Origin: a virus
DNA: 64,000 bases
Strand: one strand, 5' to 3'
IMG/VR virus record: IMGVR_UViG_3300044712_001062
Span: 1 to 64,000 of that record
Shown: piece by piece, positions 10,568-27,881 of the stretch
How the letters are laid out: each line of letters begins with the position of its first letter
Position numbering within the stretch: position 1 is the stretch's first letter
Made by a program: the position numbers and the translations under genes
The notes under the pieces: generated by a model
The model's input: only the letters and a program-made list of their open reading frames with translations
Told to the model about the DNA's origin: nothing
Databases searched by the model: none

Positions 10568-10840
10568 TCATTTGAACAGCCCGCAAATACATTTCGAAGT
10601 TGTTGTATAGTCTATGCATGGACAAATATTATCATCAGTTTTTTGAATTTTACAAGGGCAATATGTTTTTCCAAACCTCTTAAAATTCATTTCAAGACCC
10701 ATAATAATTTTAATTACTTTTGCACCATTATCATTCAATGCGTATTTTTTAACAGCCTCTTCAATTCTTGGATGTTTCAAAATTGGATAAAGTTCTCCAT
10801 CCAATTCAACAGTCGTTGGGTTAGTATTTTCTATAGGCAT
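10568..10840 (-). CDS. ferredoxin:thioredoxin/disulfide reductase catalytic-type protein
   Basis: YCPC..ICPC..CICGLF 4Fe-4S/disulfide motif; directly downstream of nrdD. Confidence 0.85.
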   Translation of the reverse strand: MPIENTNPTTVELDGELYPILKHPRIEEAVKKYALNDNGAKVIKIIMGLEMNFKRFGKTYCPCKIQKTDDNICPCIDYTTTSKCICGLFK

Positions 10841-12836
10841 TGTTACACACCGTGAAGTCTTTGGTAAAGGCAAAATACCCGAGGTTGGTTGTCTTACAAA
10901 TTTTAAGGGTCATATCCATTAGACCTCGTGGATCTGGTCGTTTCTCGCCAAGATATATGTTACAGATATTCCCACCATCTAAAATTGGGAAAAATGCTTG
11001 TTCGATTTTAATTTTTTCAGCGAGCGGAATTTGAGCATCTACTGGGATATGCGTTCCATTTGTATAGTAGATTGGTAAATCTCTTCCACCAGTTTCGGCA
11101 TAAATTTTAATGGCTTCTCGAACATTTCCCTTAACAAATTTATGAGCATCACCATACGTTAACAAATCTAATACAGCAAATCTTTGTGCAGTTGTTTCAG
11201 CAGGAGTTCGCGCAAATGCAATAGTAATTCCAAGTTCATTTGATTTTTCTTGGCAATACTTCTTCATTTTCATGATGAATTTCATTGCCTTGACTTGAAC
11301 ACTACGATCTTCATGAAGTTGCCTGCCATATAGGATTTCACAAACTTCATTTATTCCAGTAACTCCAATTGTATAAACAAGTGAATCGAAGTCTACTAAT
11401 TTAGAACCATCATGAATTTGTTGTAAGAATGGTGCAGACACATCCTTAAGCATTTCCTGCTTTAATTTGAATACATCACAACACAAATCAATTTTTTGCA
11501 TTGCCAGAAGTTCGAATTCTCCATCAATATTTCCACCAATGTGCTTTGCTTCATATGCCAATCTTGGAAAATTAACAGTCATAACTTGATAACTGCCCAT
11601 TGAAAAGTGTGCACCATCTTTGAAATGCAACTTATCATCAAATGAATTATCAGACTCTGAATTGGAATTGAAGCAATATGCGCAACATTGGAAACACGAA
11701 ATACCTTTACCAGCACCCCTGTATTGTGGGATTTGATTATCAAAATATGGGGTGCCAAACTTACTTGCTAATTCAAATGATAGTAAATACAAACTCCAAA
11801 TTGATGGCATATGCTCTGGGACATACAATGCTTCATATTCCATCATTTCAATAAATTGTGGTTCAATACTGATCTCTGGTTTTGGGAAGTAAAATGGTTT
11901 ACCAGAATAATCTCCTTCAAGCATAACTTCCATGAGTGATTTAAACAGTAATCGATTTTCAAGTTCAAATTGTCCATAAGTTCGAAGTTCTGATTGATTA
12001 CCATCCCAAATTTTTCCCCTATAAACAACCGGTATATCTTTCCATAGTTCAGGAATTCCAGGAGATAACTGAACCGAACTAAACACGACTTGACCACCGC
12101 GAGCCACGAGCATCTGGGTCATCTCATATACGAACATCTGCATACATTGCTTATAGGTGTCGTATTCATATCCTTCAAAGAATGGAGCAAGGAATGTCAA
12201 GAAATTGTAAAATCCCTGCCCACCTGCGCAATTCGTCTGTGAAGAACCCAGAACTTTAACAGCATGTAATATTGCAACTTCTGGGCGCATTGCTGGTGCA
12301 GCAAAACTTGTATGTTCTCCAGTCCCATCTCCTACAAATCCGTGGTAGAAAAAGTATCTTAAATCACTATCCAAGCAAAATTGACGAGTCCCGAAGTATT
12401 CCAAGTCATGAATATGAATATCTCCATTCAAATGTGCTTCTGCTATGTGATCGGGAAACATCAATAAGAACTCTTCCTTGCTTAACTGATCAGCCTTTCT
12501 TTTATGGCCAGTTTCTGGAGATTCTTGCAAATTAGCATTATCACCTTTTCCAGCACCAACATCAATCTTCCTGGCATCGTATACTGGCATTCCAACACGA
12601 GTATACTTCTTTCGACAATCATGCAATTCGTGTTCAAGAAATTTAGTATTTACTACTTCACGAATTAACGATCCAGTAATAATCTGAAGTGTTGATGTAT
12701 TTAATGCATGTTCAACTTCATCAACAATTTGCTCAATAATCTTTCCAGTGCAACCAGTTTCTTTGCGAATAGATTCAATAATTTTATCTTTATTAAAAGA
12801 CTCCTTATATCCATCTTTACGCCTTACTTTCAGCAA
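10821..12836 (-). CDS. nrdD: class III anaerobic ribonucleotide reductase, catalytic part lacking the glycyl-radical C-terminus
   Basis: N-terminal ATP cone, HIHDLEY, QFC, QCCAY finger loop, TPAET, YYTNGTH; ends at KDFTVCNN without the RxxGY motif. Confidence 0.95.
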   Translation of the reverse strand: MLKVRRKDGYKESFNKDKIIESIRKETGCTGKIIEQIVDEVEHALNTSTLQIITGSLIREVVNTKFLEHELHDCRKKYTRVGMPVYDARKIDVGAGKGDNANLQESPETGHKRKADQLSKEEFLLMFPDHIAEAHLNGDIHIHDLEYFGTRQFCLDSDLRYFFYHGFVGDGTGEHTSFAAPAMRPEVAILHAVKVLGSSQTNCAGGQGFYNFLTFLAPFFEGYEYDTYKQCMQMFVYEMTQMLVARGGQVVFSSVQLSPGIPELWKDIPVVYRGKIWDGNQSELRTYGQFELENRLLFKSLMEVMLEGDYSGKPFYFPKPEISIEPQFIEMMEYEALYVPEHMPSIWSLYLLSFELASKFGTPYFDNQIPQYRGAGKGISCFQCCAYCFNSNSESDNSFDDKLHFKDGAHFSMGSYQVMTVNFPRLAYEAKHIGGNIDGEFELLAMQKIDLCCDVFKLKQEMLKDVSAPFLQQIHDGSKLVDFDSLVYTIGVTGINEVCEILYGRQLHEDRSVQVKAMKFIMKMKKYCQEKSNELGITIAFARTPAETTAQRFAVLDLLTYGDAHKFVKGNVREAIKIYAETGGRDLPIYYTNGTHIPVDAQIPLAEKIKIEQAFFPILDGGNICNIYLGEKRPDPRGLMDMTLKICKTTNLGYFAFTKDFTVCNNAYRKY

Positions 12837-13051
12837 ATACCCAACTCCTTCATTGCAGATGTTTTATCAAAATACTGATCGTTTATTTTTACAATAGGGG
12901 CTTCAACTAATGTAACCCCATCTAATAGAAGTTCTGCATATACATCTGGATCTTCCAAATCCAGACTTTTATAGTTTATATTTTTTAATTCAAATAAATG
13001 TTTAAGTTCATCACAATTTGGACATACTGGAAGTGAATATACCAATATCAT
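12830..13051 (-). CDS. nrdH: NrdH-like glutaredoxin
   Basis: CPNC active site, cis-Pro EAPIV; coupled to nrdD. Confidence 0.88.
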   Translation of the reverse strand: MILVYSLPVCPNCDELKHLFELKNINYKSLDLEDPDVYAELLLDGVTLVEAPIVKINDQYFDKTSAMKELGIC

Positions 13052-13344
13052 ACATCATACCTAACGCGGTCAAGAAGTTCTTGCGTTTTCCCTTTAGCCC
13101 AAGCATCTACCGGGGAATAGTAACCTGTTACTCTAGAGATCGGGCTGACATCATGACTACCACATTCTGGACAAACAAACCCACCACATTTTTCACAAAT
13201 TTTAATCCCATCAACAACCCCACAACTGCAACTCCCAGAGTCACATTCGCACATCTCAACAACAGCACCCTTACATTCAGGACATTTTCCTTCTATAAGG
13301 TCAGAATCTTGTAGAATGTATCTACACTTCTCACACTTATGCAT
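13048..13344 (-). CDS. separate NrdD C-terminal zinc-ribbon/glycyl-radical subunit
   Basis: multiple CxxC, CPECGSHDV.PISRVTGYY..W.KGK.QEL.DR; start moved to MHKCEKC behind its own TATA box. Confidence 0.88.
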   Translation of the reverse strand: MHKCEKCRYILQDSDLIEGKCPECKGAVVEMCECDSGSCSCGVVDGIKICEKCGGFVCPECGSHDVSPISRVTGYYSPVDAWAKGKTQELLDRVRYDV

Positions 13345-13420
13345 AAGGATAAGTATATTATTGCTTATATATAAGGCAATCGCATCGCATAAAAAAGTCC
13401 CAATTAAACATCTGAAAATC

Positions 13421-13505
13421 ACTCTAAACAAAACAAAGAAAGAAGAAATTCTTCCTCTTCGTAATGTCCATGGGCACATACAAATAGTGCTTGACTATTT
13501 ATAAA
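13421..13505 (-). ncRNA. dispersed hairpin small-RNA unit, copy 4
   Basis: minus strand: TTTATAAA-10nt-CTATTTGTATGTGC, hairpin GGACA..GAAGAGGAAG/CTTCTTTCTTTG..TGTTT, then AGAGT. Confidence 0.7.
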
Positions 13506-23215: not shown

Positions 23216-25510
23216 TTAGAACCACTTATCAAGATTGGTTTGACCTTTTATTGCGCCATCCCACTCGATATTAACTGCCCAGAAATATGACTGGAGTTTT
23301 GATTTTATGGTTTTATCTGCCATAGTATGCCAATCAATTTCATTGCGAATTTGTTCAGTATCAAATCCATCATCAATACAAATTACTTGATTATGCAGGA
23401 GATATATTAAGCGGGGTTTTTCACCTTCCTGGATAATATAATTGTAATTTTCTTTTGCGTAATCTCTGCCATTAACCCATGAATTTTTATTGTCATATGA
23501 TATTGCTCGAATTTCCTTTGGCATTGATATTGAGTAAATATCGGCAGTTCCATTCAATACATCATTGTATTTGTTTCGGACATATGATAGGGCTTTATCA
23601 AGATCACCGTCTATGATTGAAGTTGTTAAGAAGTATTTTAGGCAATCCTTGGTAATGTTTGAATTGTCTGATCGTTTTATTTCGAGACCCATGAATTTAA
23701 ATTCATTACAATCTCTACCTTCTTCCCAGATGAGATGTCCTGCATACTTTTTCTTTCCTGGAACATTTCTATTATTTGATTTTGGTTTGAATAGTAATCG
23801 CCTGAATAATTTTTCTGCTTTTAATGTGAAGTGTATTGACGAACCATTTTCATCTGACCACTTGGCAAGTTCTTCATTAAGCCACTTTTCAAGTTCAAGA
23901 CATTCGCTTCCAGTATGCACCTCTGAAATGAAAACGGAATCAGTATCTCCGTACGTTATGGTTTTAGAGCGAGATTCACATAGTTTTTGAATATGCCTAT
24001 TTAATTTTTGCCCAGTGGAAGTTATGAACAATGCTTTCTCCTTATCGTATAATCTCGATGATTTGGCTCCCATTATACCATACACACTGTTAACCAATGA
24101 CTTGGCTGAGGAATCCCTGGCAGATGCTCCAAGCAATCCTTGTTTCTTCTGTTCTCTGTAGACATCTCGCAAGTCCATTAACTTTTTTGTTGACTTTGCA
24201 ATTATGTTGTCAATGTCAGGTGATACATTGTAGCCTACAATGATGTTCGGGTATAAGGCATTTAAATCGACGTTCGCCACCCATTCGTGAATTCCTGACT
24301 GGGGCTTGACTACAAGTGCTCCTTCGAACTTTTCTTTTTCACCACCATACTTTTTACGAGGCATTGGTTTAATACCTTCATGCATGACATAAATTTCAAG
24401 AATGAGACTGTTATGAAGCCCATCCATGATTTTAGATCCTACGAGGACTCGTGTAGTCTCAAAGAAATTATATAACCCTAATTTTTTATCAATGGTTCGT
24501 AGTGCAATAACATCATTTTTACAATATTGAATGTATTCGACAAATCTCTTCTCATTTATTACTCTATCGAGTATAGGCCCTAAATCTTGATATGTGAATG
24601 CTGCATCTTTTAATAGATCTTTATCGGCTATAACAGATTTCAATCCATTTGATTCACGTTGCCCCTTTCCAATATTATATTTCTCAAAGGCTTCCATTTG
24701 GTCAAGGAATGCTCGTCCTGGAACATAACTGCGGAATTTTCCAGTCGTTGAATCATATTTAGTAGAACATTCACCATAACGTGATAACCCACTTAAATTA
24801 GTTCCAATGTTTGATGCTCGCTTAATTAAATATGGTAAGTCGAACTGATCAGAATTCCATGCAGCCATAATATCAGGATTCAATTCTGAAATATACATAG
24901 AGAATATTTTTAATAATTCTTTTTCACTCTCACAATATATTTGATCAGGATCATTTATATTGTCAATTTCAAATGTAAATACTGCAATTTTTTCAGTATA
25001 ATTATCCATAGTCTGAATGGAAACAATTGGATATTCTGAATCATAAGCATGAGGAAATATGCCCTCGGGAGATCTAACTTCAATATCAAAATATACTATG
25101 CGAGGATCCATTGGATGTTCTACATCAACTGGAATTGGTTTGTCATCAACTATTTCATATGCATATTTTATTTTATGATCGACTAAAAATCTTTTATCAA
25201 ATACCACATCACTTTCATCAGTCCAACTATAGATGTCTCGAACCTTGGGAACATCACCAGGGACTCGTACATTAACCCTACAAATCTCACGACCCTTTGC
25301 ATCCAATACAACATTCGGATCAACAGAAGTAATCAAGTGATGATGCTTGTGTGCTTCACTGGCTGGACAATAAAAGTAAGGGGTATATGGAAATGTATTA
25401 GTAATAGTTTCCATTGGATTATTATAATTTCTTGAATATAAATTAACGTAAGGTTTGTTGTCTTTGACGTGATAACCCGATTCCATTACAACCCAAATTT
25501 GAGTATCCAT
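23216..25510 (-). CDS. polB: family B DNA polymerase
   Basis: exonuclease FDIE, WN...FDLPY, YC..D; polymerase DLNALYP, K...NS.YG, YGDTDS; C-terminal PIP box QTNLDKWF. Confidence 0.97.
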   Translation of the reverse strand: MDTQIWVVMESGYHVKDNKPYVNLYSRNYNNPMETITNTFPYTPYFYCPASEAHKHHHLITSVDPNVVLDAKGREICRVNVRVPGDVPKVRDIYSWTDESDVVFDKRFLVDHKIKYAYEIVDDKPIPVDVEHPMDPRIVYFDIEVRSPEGIFPHAYDSEYPIVSIQTMDNYTEKIAVFTFEIDNINDPDQIYCESEKELLKIFSMYISELNPDIMAAWNSDQFDLPYLIKRASNIGTNLSGLSRYGECSTKYDSTTGKFRSYVPGRAFLDQMEAFEKYNIGKGQRESNGLKSVIADKDLLKDAAFTYQDLGPILDRVINEKRFVEYIQYCKNDVIALRTIDKKLGLYNFFETTRVLVGSKIMDGLHNSLILEIYVMHEGIKPMPRKKYGGEKEKFEGALVVKPQSGIHEWVANVDLNALYPNIIVGYNVSPDIDNIIAKSTKKLMDLRDVYREQKKQGLLGASARDSSAKSLVNSVYGIMGAKSSRLYDKEKALFITSTGQKLNRHIQKLCESRSKTITYGDTDSVFISEVHTGSECLELEKWLNEELAKWSDENGSSIHFTLKAEKLFRRLLFKPKSNNRNVPGKKKYAGHLIWEEGRDCNEFKFMGLEIKRSDNSNITKDCLKYFLTTSIIDGDLDKALSYVRNKYNDVLNGTADIYSISMPKEIRAISYDNKNSWVNGRDYAKENYNYIIQEGEKPRLIYLLHNQVICIDDGFDTEQIRNEIDWHTMADKTIKSKLQSYFWAVNIEWDGAIKGQTNLDKWF

Positions 25511-25554
25511 AACTCATATATGATGTTTACATTTATAAAATAGAAGGATCTAAA

Positions 25555-25881
25555 ATTTGTATACCACCAAAGGCCTGACCGCAGCAAGTCTTTGGGATTA
25601 CGATGCCACTGCTGTGATATACAAATACCCCATCCCGGTATGACCCAGAAACAGAGCAAGAGATCTAATTTCCTTTTAATTTGGGCGAGTAAATTAGATC
25701 TCTCCTAATTTCAGCGTTTCCCTGTCCAGATATGTAACGCCATACCAACGTTTACCTTCTGATAGCACTCCTACGGCGAAGGCAACCTGCGTGTCACGTT
25801 TGCTATCCAACGTACCGGGCCGATCCGTTTCACCCAGTAAACCACATCTCGATCCAATGATCGCATATCGGAAGTGGAGAT
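25555..25881 (-). ncRNA. large structured RNA(s) downstream of the tRNA-like domains
   Basis: GC-rich, no listed ORF; stems CCCGGTA/TACCGGG, GATAGCA/TGCTATC, AGAGATCTAATTT/AAATTAGATCTCT, ATTTGTATATCAC/GTGGTATACAAAT, CCAAAG/CTTTGG; potential pseudoknots TGCCTTC/GAAGGTA and CAGCAG/TTGCTG. Confidence 0.65.
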
Positions 25882-25943
25882 ACCCCCCAGATGGAATCGA
25901 ACCATCGAACCCGTATACAGGTTAACCGCCACTTTATAGGGGG
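25882..25943 (-). ncRNA. tRNA-like element B (62 nt, no D-stem, tetraloop in place of the anticodon loop)
   Basis: acceptor CCCCCTA/TGGGGGG, T-arm GATGG-TTCGATT-CCATC, middle hairpin AACCTG-TATA-CGGGTT. Confidence 0.7.
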
Positions 25944-25944
25944 A

Positions 25945-26049
25945 GTCCACACGGCTGGAATTGCACCACCTTAATAGAATATCACCAGTTCTTCAGCGTT
26001 GTCATGACACCGAACGGATTTTTCTACTGAATGCTTGATTACGTGTGGA
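25945..26049 (-). ncRNA. tRNA-like element A with a long extended middle arm
   Basis: acceptor TCCACAC/GTGTGGA, T-like arm TGG-TGCAATT-CCA, stems AGTAGAA/TTCTATT and TTCGGTGT/ACGCTGAA; TTTATATA promoter at 26084-26091. Confidence 0.6.
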
Positions 26050-26273
26050 AATTCGTATTACATACTAATGTTATACTTCAAAATATATAAAGGTTATGAT
26101 CGCCTATAACCCAATTTGAGTAATATAGTTTTTAAGGCAATATGAATTGCAAAATGCTAAATTACGATTAACCAAAACATTTGGTCCTGTGACAATTTCA
26201 ACTTTCTTAATATAAATGGAATGGTTTTTTAGCATTTCCATTACATTATCGCAAAAATCACAATGTTCTATTT

Positions 26274-27782
26274 TCATGATCTCATAGCCTCGCTTAATAT
26301 TGAACTAAATTGTTTGGCTTTTGGGCTTAACATCACAGTAAGTTGATTGGATGATCGTGTTACCGCCACATAATATATGCGATGTTCTTCGGCAAGATCT
26401 CCTGCGGGATTGAACCCCATATCATAGATGATAACTGCTGGCCATTCCAAACCTTTCGAAGCATGGATAGTGTCAATGACTATGGAGTTGGGGTTGATTT
26501 TCTTTCCGCTTTTGATGGCCTTGAAGTAAATTTTCTTCAGGAATTCATCACCCCAGGCAAAATGCAAATTATAGAGATCTTTAATTCCAGTTACTGGATT
26601 TGTATATGCTTCGTTGATGAATTTGCCCATATCGAAATAAGATTTTTTACCACCTTTGGTAATCCACGCAGTTGTCCAAGTATTATAACGGTTGGTTAGT
26701 GATGTGTGGGGAATTCCCGCATAATTCAACATATTATGAATGTCCGTACAACCACGCTTGATACGTGATAGAATGACCACTTTACCATATATTTTATGGA
26801 GGTTTAGAATTTCATCAATAACCTGATCGTTTTTCAGAGGGTCTACCACTTCAATACGACCTCCGATGTACGCGGGATCGCCATGAGAATTATGCCCTAA
26901 TACTTTATCAGCGAAATTTACAATGGCACTTGGATTTCGAAAAGATTTCACCCTTTTGCCATTTTGTGCACCAACATCAATAGCCTTCTCATTGACGATG
27001 TATTTTGGATCTGACCCTCGGAAGGAGTAAATGGCTTGGTTTTCGTCACCGGCGATGTATATGCTTTCGAATACATTTGCATCTCTCCACATTTCATAAA
27101 GTCTGTATTGCAAGGTACTTACATCTTGCATTTCATCAAGTAAGAGCAACTTGCGTTTGTATGGCATCAACTTATTATCAATGCACATTTGGATGTAATC
27201 ATCATGTTCAACTAATTGCCTTGCCTTCTTGAACTCTTTCCATGAATAAAACATTGCTTCGTTGATAGATTCTACTTGCTTGAATTCAAATTCGAATTTA
27301 TTAGCAATATTTGACCATTCACTAATTGGCAACATACAAGTCGTCATATACGAATTGATCTTGAAAAAACAATTACCAGTTGCCAAAGTTTTATTGAAAT
27401 CAGGATCAGTTTCCATTTCGTCGGTGATGTATTTAGATTCATACATCATGTGATTCAATGAGCAAAATTCCATATAATGGTTAATGCAATCCTTACTTTC
27501 GGTGATTACCGTTGCATGTGGCATTAAATTTGACTGTAGAAAGATTGACAATGCTGCGCCATGGATAGTGCGGACATGCGAATTGATGGTTTTTTCATCA
27601 GCAATTTTAAAGATTTTATGAATTCGTGCTTTGATATCGCTGATTTGACTGCGAGTAAATGAAATAAATAAAATGTCCTCGATGTTGAGAGAATTTTCTA
27701 CAACCTGCTCTTCAATGTATTCAAGGAGTCTTGTTGATTTTCCACTCCCTGCTGCTCCAATATACCTAATTACTTTAGTCAT
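26274..27782 (-). CDS. UvrD/Rep-like SF1 helicase
   Basis: GAAGSGKS, LLDEMQD, AGDENQAIYSFRG, TIHASKGLEW, YVAVTRS; start moved to MTKVI. Confidence 0.95.
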   Translation of the reverse strand: MTKVIRYIGAAGSGKSTRLLEYIEEQVVENSLNIEDILFISFTRSQISDIKARIHKIFKIADEKTINSHVRTIHGAALSIFLQSNLMPHATVITESKDCINHYMEFCSLNHMMYESKYITDEMETDPDFNKTLATGNCFFKINSYMTTCMLPISEWSNIANKFEFEFKQVESINEAMFYSWKEFKKARQLVEHDDYIQMCIDNKLMPYKRKLLLLDEMQDVSTLQYRLYEMWRDANVFESIYIAGDENQAIYSFRGSDPKYIVNEKAIDVGAQNGKRVKSFRNPSAIVNFADKVLGHNSHGDPAYIGGRIEVVDPLKNDQVIDEILNLHKIYGKVVILSRIKRGCTDIHNMLNYAGIPHTSLTNRYNTWTTAWITKGGKKSYFDMGKFINEAYTNPVTGIKDLYNLHFAWGDEFLKKIYFKAIKSGKKINPNSIVIDTIHASKGLEWPAVIIYDMGFNPAGDLAEEHRIYYVAVTRSSNQLTVMLSPKAKQFSSILSEAMRS

Positions 27783-27881
27783 GGTTTTATATGTACATAT
27801 ATGAGGGTAGAATATATAAAACCTTGGATGTGACAACAATTTACGAACGAAAAAAGATTAATAATTTAAAAATTTACTACT

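Follow-up and report, generated by a model that had tools for sequence, protein, structure and literature searches.

The stretch analysed here (the window) comprises the first 64 kb of IMG/VR virus record IMGVR_UViG_3300044712_001062, which is 135,061 bases long and estimated to be 83% complete. Between its genes for a UvrD-type helicase and a family B DNA polymerase (polB) lies an island, positions 25552-26091, that is GC-rich, poor in open reading frames (ORFs) and set behind a putative TATA-type promoter on the minus strand. Comparison with related viruses indicates that this locus acts as RNA, with the minus strand as its sense, and that it is a mosaic of RNA cassettes in units of up to 130 nucleotides (nt), not one conserved RNA of about 500 nt. 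Modules A and B resemble the acceptor and T-arm half of a tRNA, and the module that follows them, M3, is a double-pseudoknot motif that we take, from its sequence relatives, to be a new RNA family with few members, absent from Rfam. We lean, without great confidence, towards a single minus-strand transcript that would be cut by RNase P and tRNase Z into separate small structured RNAs.

The M3 motif has the most relatives. In a DNA search of 20 related records, positions 25753-25847 were 85% identical to a stretch of the virus record G012 (G-numbers denote virus records, G000 being the whole record of this virus). G001 and G002 carry an array identical to that of G012, and the three records are treated as one lineage. 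A model of the 95-nt core (R1) recovered a diverged second copy in the G012 array, at 35.7 bits, and a copy in G020, at 58.1 bits, a complete 143.5-kb genome whose polB is about 39% identical. This makes four copies in three virus lineages: one in the window, two in the G012 lineage and one in G020.

These copies preserve pairing while the sequence changes. By a generous count over the three aligned copies, 74 of 75 cells are paired and nine of the 25 pairs have changed on both sides, compared with 30-42% paired and between zero and two such changes when the partners were slid against one another. None of 500 shuffles reached the observed values on four of five measures, and one of 500 did so on the fifth, further pair types. 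The window core and the first G012 copy differ at 14 positions; nine are in paired positions and the pair is kept in all nine. The pseudoknots were added by hand and were not used in R1. As modelled, a single 15-nt 3' tail zips onto two hairpin loops, forming PK-A and PK-B, and the unpaired TGAC (25793-25796) and GGAG (25768-25771) are invariant. R1 misplaced the tail of the G020 copy in the alignment, and this part was therefore checked by position. Its PK-A is ATCTATG/CATAGAT where the window has GATAGCA/TGCTATC, and its PK-B is GATTCC/GGAATC where the window has TGCCTTC/GAAGGTA, so that both are wholly different in sequence and still complementary.

An earlier reading made from the sequence alone had proposed the TGCCTTC/GAAGGTA pairing as a potential pseudoknot, and it is real: it is PK-B, it covaries, and the G020 variant also pairs. 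The same reading had suggested a CATACCGGG switch in which CCCGGTA was one of the alternative partners. The switch finds no support: in P0, CCCGGTA forms the 3' strand opposite TACTGGG, in a helix with both-sided changes at six of the seven pairs (P0 in G020 is CACCAGA/TTTGGTG). The proposed multi-stem domain of about 255 nt divides into two separate units, 25753-25881 and 25634-25752. The homolog search and covariation analysis recommended with that reading did reveal compensatory changes, in module A (two sequences) and in M3 (three aligned sequences, with a fourth by position). A further candidate helix in M3, CACTTC (25870-25875) with GGAGTG, was dropped: G020 has GGAGCA, and those two bases belong to PK-A.

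The position of M3 is also constant. All four copies start 0-1 nt after the discriminator of an element with a T arm and acceptor stem, and the element differs from copy to copy: module B in the window, a 69-nt cloverleaf-sized mimic before the first G012 copy, a tRNA-scoring element before the second and a 49-nt minihelix in G020. The first G012 copy ends 2 nt before the next tRNA-like element, which scores 32.3 bits on the Rfam tRNA model against a threshold of 29 bits, and is thus bracketed on both sides. Around the G012 stretch, tRNA-like elements and other hairpins make up an array that is 1.6 kb long and free of genes. In G020 a short ORF comes after M3, and true tRNA-Thr and tRNA-His genes come next. 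Contigs from three wastewater runs are identical to the window over 25753-25882 and then carry a different T arm, the similarity breaking exactly at the 3' end of B. A non-coding RNA therefore abuts a tRNA-shaped element in all four copies of M3 and in one environmental variant. The boundary 25881/25882, one of the putative RNA ends marked in the sequence-only reading, is where relatives switch the upstream tRNA-like element and where every M3 copy begins. The breakpoints in environmental contigs follow sequence variants and not RNA ends, and wastewater and freshwater runs clearly contain further variants.

Module A has a 7-base-pair (bp) acceptor stem, CCACACG/CGTGTGG. Its central arm is long (35 nt), bulged and capped by a 7-nt loop. 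In its T arm, GGTGG-TGCAATT-CCAGC, one pair is mismatched and the loop departs from the canonical T loop. A single homolog was found, at G018:88620-88722, in a virus whose polB is about 41% identical. The cores are 88% identical, and a covariance model built from A alone aligned to the whole length of the G018 copy with a score of 85.8 bits. Both-sided changes keep the pairing at four of seven acceptor pairs and two of five T-stem pairs, the G018 T stem is perfect, and, again counted generously, 45 of 46 cells are paired compared with 32-50% when partners were slid. The central arm is invariant between the two and therefore uninformative. The description of A as tRNA-like holds for the acceptor stem and for the homolog with its compensatory changes. 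It does not extend to detection: A is called neither by ARAGORN nor by the Rfam tRNA model (RF00005), and the relaxed acceptor/T-arm scan that catches it gave seven matches against eight, five and three in shuffled sequence, which is the shuffle level.

Module B has a perfect 7-bp acceptor stem, CCCCCTA/TGGGGGG, that stacks directly onto the 5-bp stem of a canonical T arm, GATGG-TTCGATT-CCATC, whose 7-nt loop is TTCGATT. In its predicted fold the place of the D arm is taken by a 13-nt loop, and that of the anticodon arm by a hairpin of 6 bp with a 4-nt loop. A strict acceptor/T-arm scan of both strands of the 135-kb genome returned only B and two true tRNAs, while the same pattern in five mononucleotide shuffles gave 0, 0, 1, 1 and 0 matches. 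The T arm of B also matches the T-arm consensus of transfer-messenger RNA (tmRNA) and tRNA locally in Rfam. No sequence homolog was found in the related records. The proposed tRNA-likeness of B is thus borne out by the strict scan, which sets it beside two true tRNAs, but not by ARAGORN, which calls no tRNA here.

Taken together, the two modules share several features with tRNA: a 7-bp acceptor stem on a 5-bp T stem (perfect in B, with the one T-stem mismatch in A), a 7-nt T loop, a single discriminator, and a separation of 3 nt counting the discriminator of A, as in tRNA arrays. They differ from tRNA in lacking an anticodon arm whose 7-nt loop carries U33 and, at position 37, a purine (in A the loop at the anticodon position is CATGACA, with A at position 33), in beginning with C and not G and, in B, in having no D stem. 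Neither produced an RF00005 match at E<=10 over 25400-26250, and calling them required a lowered threshold that yields 100 calls genome-wide. On the modelled folds A and B cannot decode, as neither has an anticodon loop.

The case for RNA on the minus strand rests on two observations. G-U pairs, which occupy five of 75 cells in the M3 alignment and four of 46 in that of A, are kept on this strand and would be A-C mismatches on the other, and the T loops are correct only on this strand.

The case for a mosaic rests on distribution, since the pieces have homologs in different viruses at different positions in the genome. The core of A matches only G018, at 88.6 kb; M3 matches the two copies of G012, G001 and G002 and the one of G020; the remainder of the island matched nothing in the related records. 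The homologous modules are not beside replication genes, and in the closest relatives, with about 61% polB identity, small ORFs fill the space upstream of polB. The proposal that the locus encodes a large new viral non-coding RNA thus survives in part: it is a strand-specific non-coding locus with a tRNA-like 5' end and no family match, but a mosaic and not one RNA of the GOLLD or ROOL kind.

Downstream of M3 are two domains that we regard as predictions. The first, a three-way junction, has a closing stem (25741-25746 with 25637-25642) and two hairpins, a small one and one of 13 bp (25691-25703 with 25659-25671) that bears the loop ACTCGCCCAAATTAAAAGG. It folds with a z of -2.75, which none of 200 shuffles equalled, and the antisense strand gives -2.91. 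A similar hairpin and loop occurs alone at G004:118825-118848. One environmental contig has 25716-25752 replaced by a single base, and one joins M3 to the long downstream hairpin. In the second domain, the 13-bp closing stem that had been noticed from the sequence alone is present in the minimum-energy fold. An H-type pseudoknot, CAGCAG/TTGCTG crossing CCAAAG/CTTTGG, is possible there, but the CAGCAG/TTGCTG pairing, also proposed earlier, finds no comparative support. The inner 33 nt of this domain (25580-25612) recur in environmental contigs with other flanks.

The island stands out from its surroundings as the sequence-only reading described, with a GC content of 45-51% over 25600-25999 in 200-nt windows compared with about 27-42% in the flanks, and with no overlapping ORF longer than 59 amino acids (aa). 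The TATA-like element noted upstream is present and belongs to a motif class enriched before ORF starts, with 33 occurrences at -50 to -25 against 5.5 expected (153 ORFs) and a peak at -30/-29. From this genome's own promoter spacing, transcription of the island would start near 26061. A separate TATA-like box (25531-25540) precedes the ATG of polB by 29 nt. An Rfam search of the whole window returned no family at the gathering score, and at E<=10 over 25400-26250 the only sense-strand match was a 17-nt beta_tmRNA T arm, at 10.6 bits against a gathering score of 84. ARAGORN called neither tRNA nor tmRNA in the window. The Rfam check proposed with the sequence-only reading therefore gave no usable family, and that reading was right in seeing no tmRNA signature. 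The coordinates of the features are collected in Table 1.

Table 1. Features of the island and its neighbours in the window (all on the minus strand; w/, paired with)
Feature	Position	Strand	Basis or remark
UvrD-type helicase	26274-27839	minus	island neighbour
57-aa ORF	26104-26277	minus	directly upstream of island; no Pfam match
TATA-box-like element TTTATATA, putative promoter	26084-26091	minus	sequence and genome-wide motif spacing
Module A, 102-nt tRNA-like RNA plus discriminator A	25946-26048 (body 25947-26048)	minus	homolog in G018
Module B, 61-nt tRNA mimic plus discriminator U	25882-25943 (body 25883-25943)	minus	strict scan and fold
M3, double-pseudoknot RNA motif of about 130 nt	25753-25881	minus	four copies, model R1
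M3 5' hairpin domain	25840-25881	minus	
M3 P0	25833-25839 w/ 25813-25819	minus	TACTGGG/CCCGGTA
M3 hairpin P1	25809-25812 w/ 25797-25800	minus	
M3 hairpin P3	25785-25787 w/ 25775-25777	minus	7-nt loop
M3 PK-A	25801-25807 w/ 25761-25767	minus	P1 loop pairs with downstream strand
M3 PK-B	25778-25784 w/ 25753-25759	minus	P3 loop pairs with next downstream strand
Predicted three-way-junction domain	25634-25752	minus	minimum-energy fold
Predicted 3' domain	25553-25633	minus	13-bp stem 25614-25626 w/ 25555-25567; fold z -1.29
T4 run, possible archaeal-type terminator of island transcript	25552-25555	minus	sequence
polB	23216-25510	minus	ATG at 25510

We propose that the island is a transcription unit running from near 26061 to the T-run at 25552, with a putative promoter and terminator at its ends. 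Modules A and B would present the stacked acceptor and T arm by which RNase P and tRNase Z identify their substrates, and cutting would free A, B and a downstream RNA beginning at 25881 with M3. The tRNA mimics would be processing handles and possibly decoys, and our preferred role for the product would be to persist as a small RNA resistant to nucleases and to bind some factor of the host or the virus. Cutting by RNase P and tRNase Z is the most economical mechanism because the mimics are spaced as in a tRNA array and the M3 junction is fixed to tRNA-like 3' ends.

A number of points weigh against this picture. RNase P and tRNase Z accept acceptor/T-arm minihelices, but this is applied to A and B by assumption. 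The folding energy of the whole island is that of shuffled sequence (z -0.88; 17 of 100 shuffles folded as well), so that it fails the comparison with shuffled controls suggested in the sequence-only reading, and the case for structure must rest on comparison with relatives. The five modules give z values of -1.4, -1.4, +0.5, -2.75 and -1.3, and those of A, B and M3 do not differ significantly from shuffles. The comparison for A involves two sequences and that for M3 four, whose structure was read from the same sequences and whose nested part was fitted to the structure, which is why both sets of counts are generous. Neither 3' domain (25553-25752) has covariation support among the related records. 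The wastewater runs are labelled RNA-Seq, but two are flagged as probably DNA and the third is a guess, so they supply sequence variants and not expression. No RNA ligase, CCA-adding enzyme or RNase was found by Pfam among 133 ORFs of the genome (16, together with 117 of 159 candidates of at least 70 aa, the 42 omitted being the shortest or overlapping), which gives no hint of a dedicated pathway. Finally, that the host is an archaeon is itself a probable conclusion, drawn at the level of domain.

Several other explanations have to be set against processing into separate RNAs. One is that the modules fold and act together as one functional RNA, a scaffold or ribozyme some 500 nt long. One promoter and one T-run do bracket the whole island, M3 and the long downstream hairpin are joined in an environmental contig, and large ornate RNAs beside phage tRNAs are known, GOLLD and ROOL among them, according to the available text of PMC12286853. 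GOLLD and ROOL resemble the island in being non-coding, structured, present in virus genomes and often next to tRNAs, but the covariance models of neither matched it, at the gathering score or at E<=10. They are single conserved RNAs of 580-800 nt, whereas the island is made of reassorting units. No relative has the whole island, its pieces being separate or recombined; M3 in G012 and G020 precedes a tRNA-like element or an ORF and not the 3' domains; and long-range pairing between modules is unsupported, as is a low folding energy for the whole. We consider a single large RNA quite unlikely. It is also distinctly doubtful that M3 is a self-cleaving ribozyme, cutting near its own 5' end and so trimming the 3' trailer of the tRNA-like element upstream. 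M3 always lies directly 3' of a tRNA or tRNA-like element, and its crossing pseudoknots and invariant unpaired TGAC and GGAG are as in catalytic cores. However, archaea have tRNase Z for the removal of tRNA 3' trailers, no Rfam ribozyme family matched at E<=10, that of the hepatitis delta virus (HDV) ribozyme included, and a loose HDV-like descriptor gave 46 matches, none of them using the conserved helices, compared with 4-99 in 20 shuffles. The P1.1 helix of HDV-like ribozymes is 2 bp and the loop-to-tail helices of M3 are 6-7 bp. M3 is without P2, P4 and the J4/2 segment that would hold the catalytic cytosine of that class: P0 abuts P1 with 0 nt between them, PK-B ends the motif, and no helix joins the segment after P1 to the 3' end as the nested double pseudoknot would have it. 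There is a likeness to the HDV-like theta ribozymes, as far as they are described in the available text of PMC10879173: like M3 they are pseudoknotted RNAs of tailed viruses tied to tRNAs, often tRNA-associated and proposed to process 3' trailers, and they are reported there only from gut phages of bacteria, with the catalytic cytosine at the first position of J4/2.

The tRNA mimics could instead be the products, acting as decoys for a tRNA-targeting defence nuclease or another tRNA-binding protein, with M3 and the rest as trailers. A and B keep the acceptor/T-arm half and have no anticodon loop, related viruses carry several more such elements, and the available parts of PMC10264068 and PMC11555353 report that phage tRNAs counter tRNA-targeting defences. 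Against this, M3 is conserved at least as well as the mimics, with 85% identity at 61% polB identity, which is unlike a mere trailer, and B has no detectable homolog. The anticodon nucleases that we know of recognise the anticodon loop, which the mimics lack. As the whole explanation this seems unlikely, although a decoy role for the mimics is possible alongside processing and does not exclude it. A decaying cluster of tRNA genes, made of pseudogenes and spacer remnants without present function, would account for there being only two intact tRNAs in the genome, for T-arm-like hairpin remnants near tRNA-Leu and for the failure of A and B in tRNA detectors. Decay would not yield compensatory changes that preserve helices, though, and leaves unexplained why modules are 85-88% identical between viruses whose polB is 41-61% identical, and we think it very improbable. 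The least credible explanation is an element acting at the level of DNA, such as a replication origin or packaging site. It would fit the location between replication genes and the fact that either strand of the long hairpin domain folds as well as the other. But G-U pairs are kept on one strand only, module homologs in relatives lie away from replication genes, and no iteron-type repeats are visible by eye in the island sequence, in which no repeat search was run.

Processing of one transcript into small RNAs, which we prefer, has precedents. The mascRNA of MALAT1 and the tRNA-microRNA transcripts of murine gammaherpesvirus 68 are also non-decoding tRNA-shaped elements fused to another RNA, and RNase P or tRNase Z sets the ends of the fused RNA. 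B, at 61 nt, is the size of mascRNA. Those cases are eukaryotic or from animal viruses, whereas here the virus is probably archaeal, the 5' handles are in tandem and the cleavage is predicted. The tRNA-like domain of tmRNA and the bacterial YrlA (Y RNA-like) tRNA mimics likewise keep the acceptor and T arm and replace the anticodon arm, but ARAGORN finds no tmRNA here, there is no tag reading frame, and neither tmRNA nor YrlA matched in Rfam at threshold. Neither SmpB nor Ro60 was among the Pfam matches of the 133 ORFs, although no search was aimed at either gene. Fusion of tRNA mimics to a structured RNA in a virus is thus a known arrangement in a new setting.

To our knowledge almost nothing is known of non-coding RNAs in archaeal viruses, and among the results listed by our literature search none describes arrays of tRNA-like elements or structured RNAs in them. 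A survey of candidate RNAs in IMG/VR (8,495 candidates; PMC10690425) treats tRNA-like candidates in general terms in its available text and may include M3. The locus offers testable coordinates: a putative promoter, two non-decoding tRNA mimics and a double-pseudoknot motif. If tRNA-processing enzymes cut here, the tRNA-handle route of mascRNA and the herpesvirus RNAs would extend to the archaeal virosphere, and if M3 is catalytic a ribozyme class would be added. It would be rather surprising, on present evidence, if M3 were a new class of archaeal-virus RNA, either a ribozyme of novel fold that matures the upstream mimic or a captor of the host's tRNA-processing or CCA-adding machinery, with A and B the first virus-made tRNA decoys described from archaea. 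As modules reassort among viruses at boundaries that fall exactly on tRNA-like ends, it seems that small structured RNAs may be exchanged as cassettes, like protein genes.

The virus itself is a tailed virus with an archaeal-type polB, and its host is probably an archaeon. This is suggested by the polB relatives, by matches to haloarchaeal viruses, by gene content and by the spacing of the TATA-like motifs, which is as expected of archaeal promoters on leaderless genes. Among the relatives of polB, the few with names are archaeal (Methanospirillum, Thorarchaeota, Thermoproteota and haloarchaeal PolB). In a GenBank virus set, 58 records matched polB at E<=1e-20, 56 of them haloarchaeal tailed viruses by name. 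The genome, with a GC content of about 36%, codes for tail-tube proteins, an anaerobic ribonucleotide reductase, an ERCC4 nuclease and a TrmB-type regulator, and the long ORFs of the window are nearly all on the minus strand. A bacterial host, as for the phage RNAs GOLLD and ROOL with which the locus had been compared, is less likely, on polB relatives and motif spacing, than an archaeal one. Assigning a host from genome bins was rejected: the best polB matches lie on contigs binned with Saccharibacteria, Syntrophaceae and others, which we read as mis-binned virus contigs.

Wider searches gave no further copies of the island. The island and the G020 array, used as queries in blastn against GenBank phages, produced no match, and four archaeal genomes and four metagenome-assembled genomes with related polB genes had no match to the island. 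Searching IMG/VR with the polB protein alone returned no relative, and among the 67 loci of the polB alignment none had island-like sequence beside polB. In 50 related records model R2 found no further copies and model R3, of the 3' domain, found none. Exact-pattern scans of IMG/VR returned the known records and one chance match in a GC-rich coding region (L189); a scan of JGI metagenomes returned the known G001 contig and three chance matches in high-GC bacterial contigs; and 401 Halobacteriota genomes yielded one 31-nt chance match inside a coding region.

ARAGORN finds only tRNA-Leu and tRNA-Gln in the whole genome, whether or not introns are allowed. The tRNA-Gln (G000 88387-88459) begins with an A1-U72 pair, which we take to be typical of archaeal and not bacterial tRNA-Gln and which would presumably suit an archaeal host. 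Outside the window, at about G000 77850-78050 on the minus strand, a 1.4-kb gene-free stretch by tRNA-Leu holds short hairpins, GATGTAA-C-GTAGG-CTCAATC-CCTAC-TTACATT among them, that resemble minihelices made of acceptor and T arm alone. T-loop hairpins thus seem to be used repeatedly by this virus.

Related viruses have gene-free arrays of 0.4-1.6 kb (L069 660-1900, in G012; G018:12750-13560; G004:73840-74200; L186 960-1600, in G020) with shared cassettes that the window lacks. These include a hairpin that has an invariant ATGGTTGTAAAC/ATAGTTGTAAAC motif and lies immediately upstream of a minihelix of 48-51 nt, a terminal hairpin, TTGGCCGGATAG...GAAGCCGGTGG, and others. In G018, a 2.2-kb gene-free region contains repeated GGTGATGTCA and GTGATATCAC motifs (110700-111250) that look like the iterons of a replication origin.

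Some neighbouring genes have features of their own. The 57-aa ORF directly upstream of the island has two cysteine pairs (CDFC ... CNSYC) and may encode a zinc-ribbon protein of small size. Two ORFs within 10821-13479 on the minus strand make up the anaerobic ribonucleotide reductase. The 671-aa main ORF (10821-12836) covers positions 1-513 of the NRDD profile. Upstream of it and of a glutaredoxin-like ORF (12830-13051), a 143-aa ORF (13048-13479) matches the profile over its final 55 positions only, the C-terminal end and presumably the place of the glycyl-radical site; it could be a spare glycyl-radical module or part of a split gene. Many close relatives of polB (P0004-P0006, P0013, P0014 and others) are 930-1180 aa long and carry intein/Hint and homing-endonuclease domains (PF14890, PF14528), while the polB of the window is intein-free.

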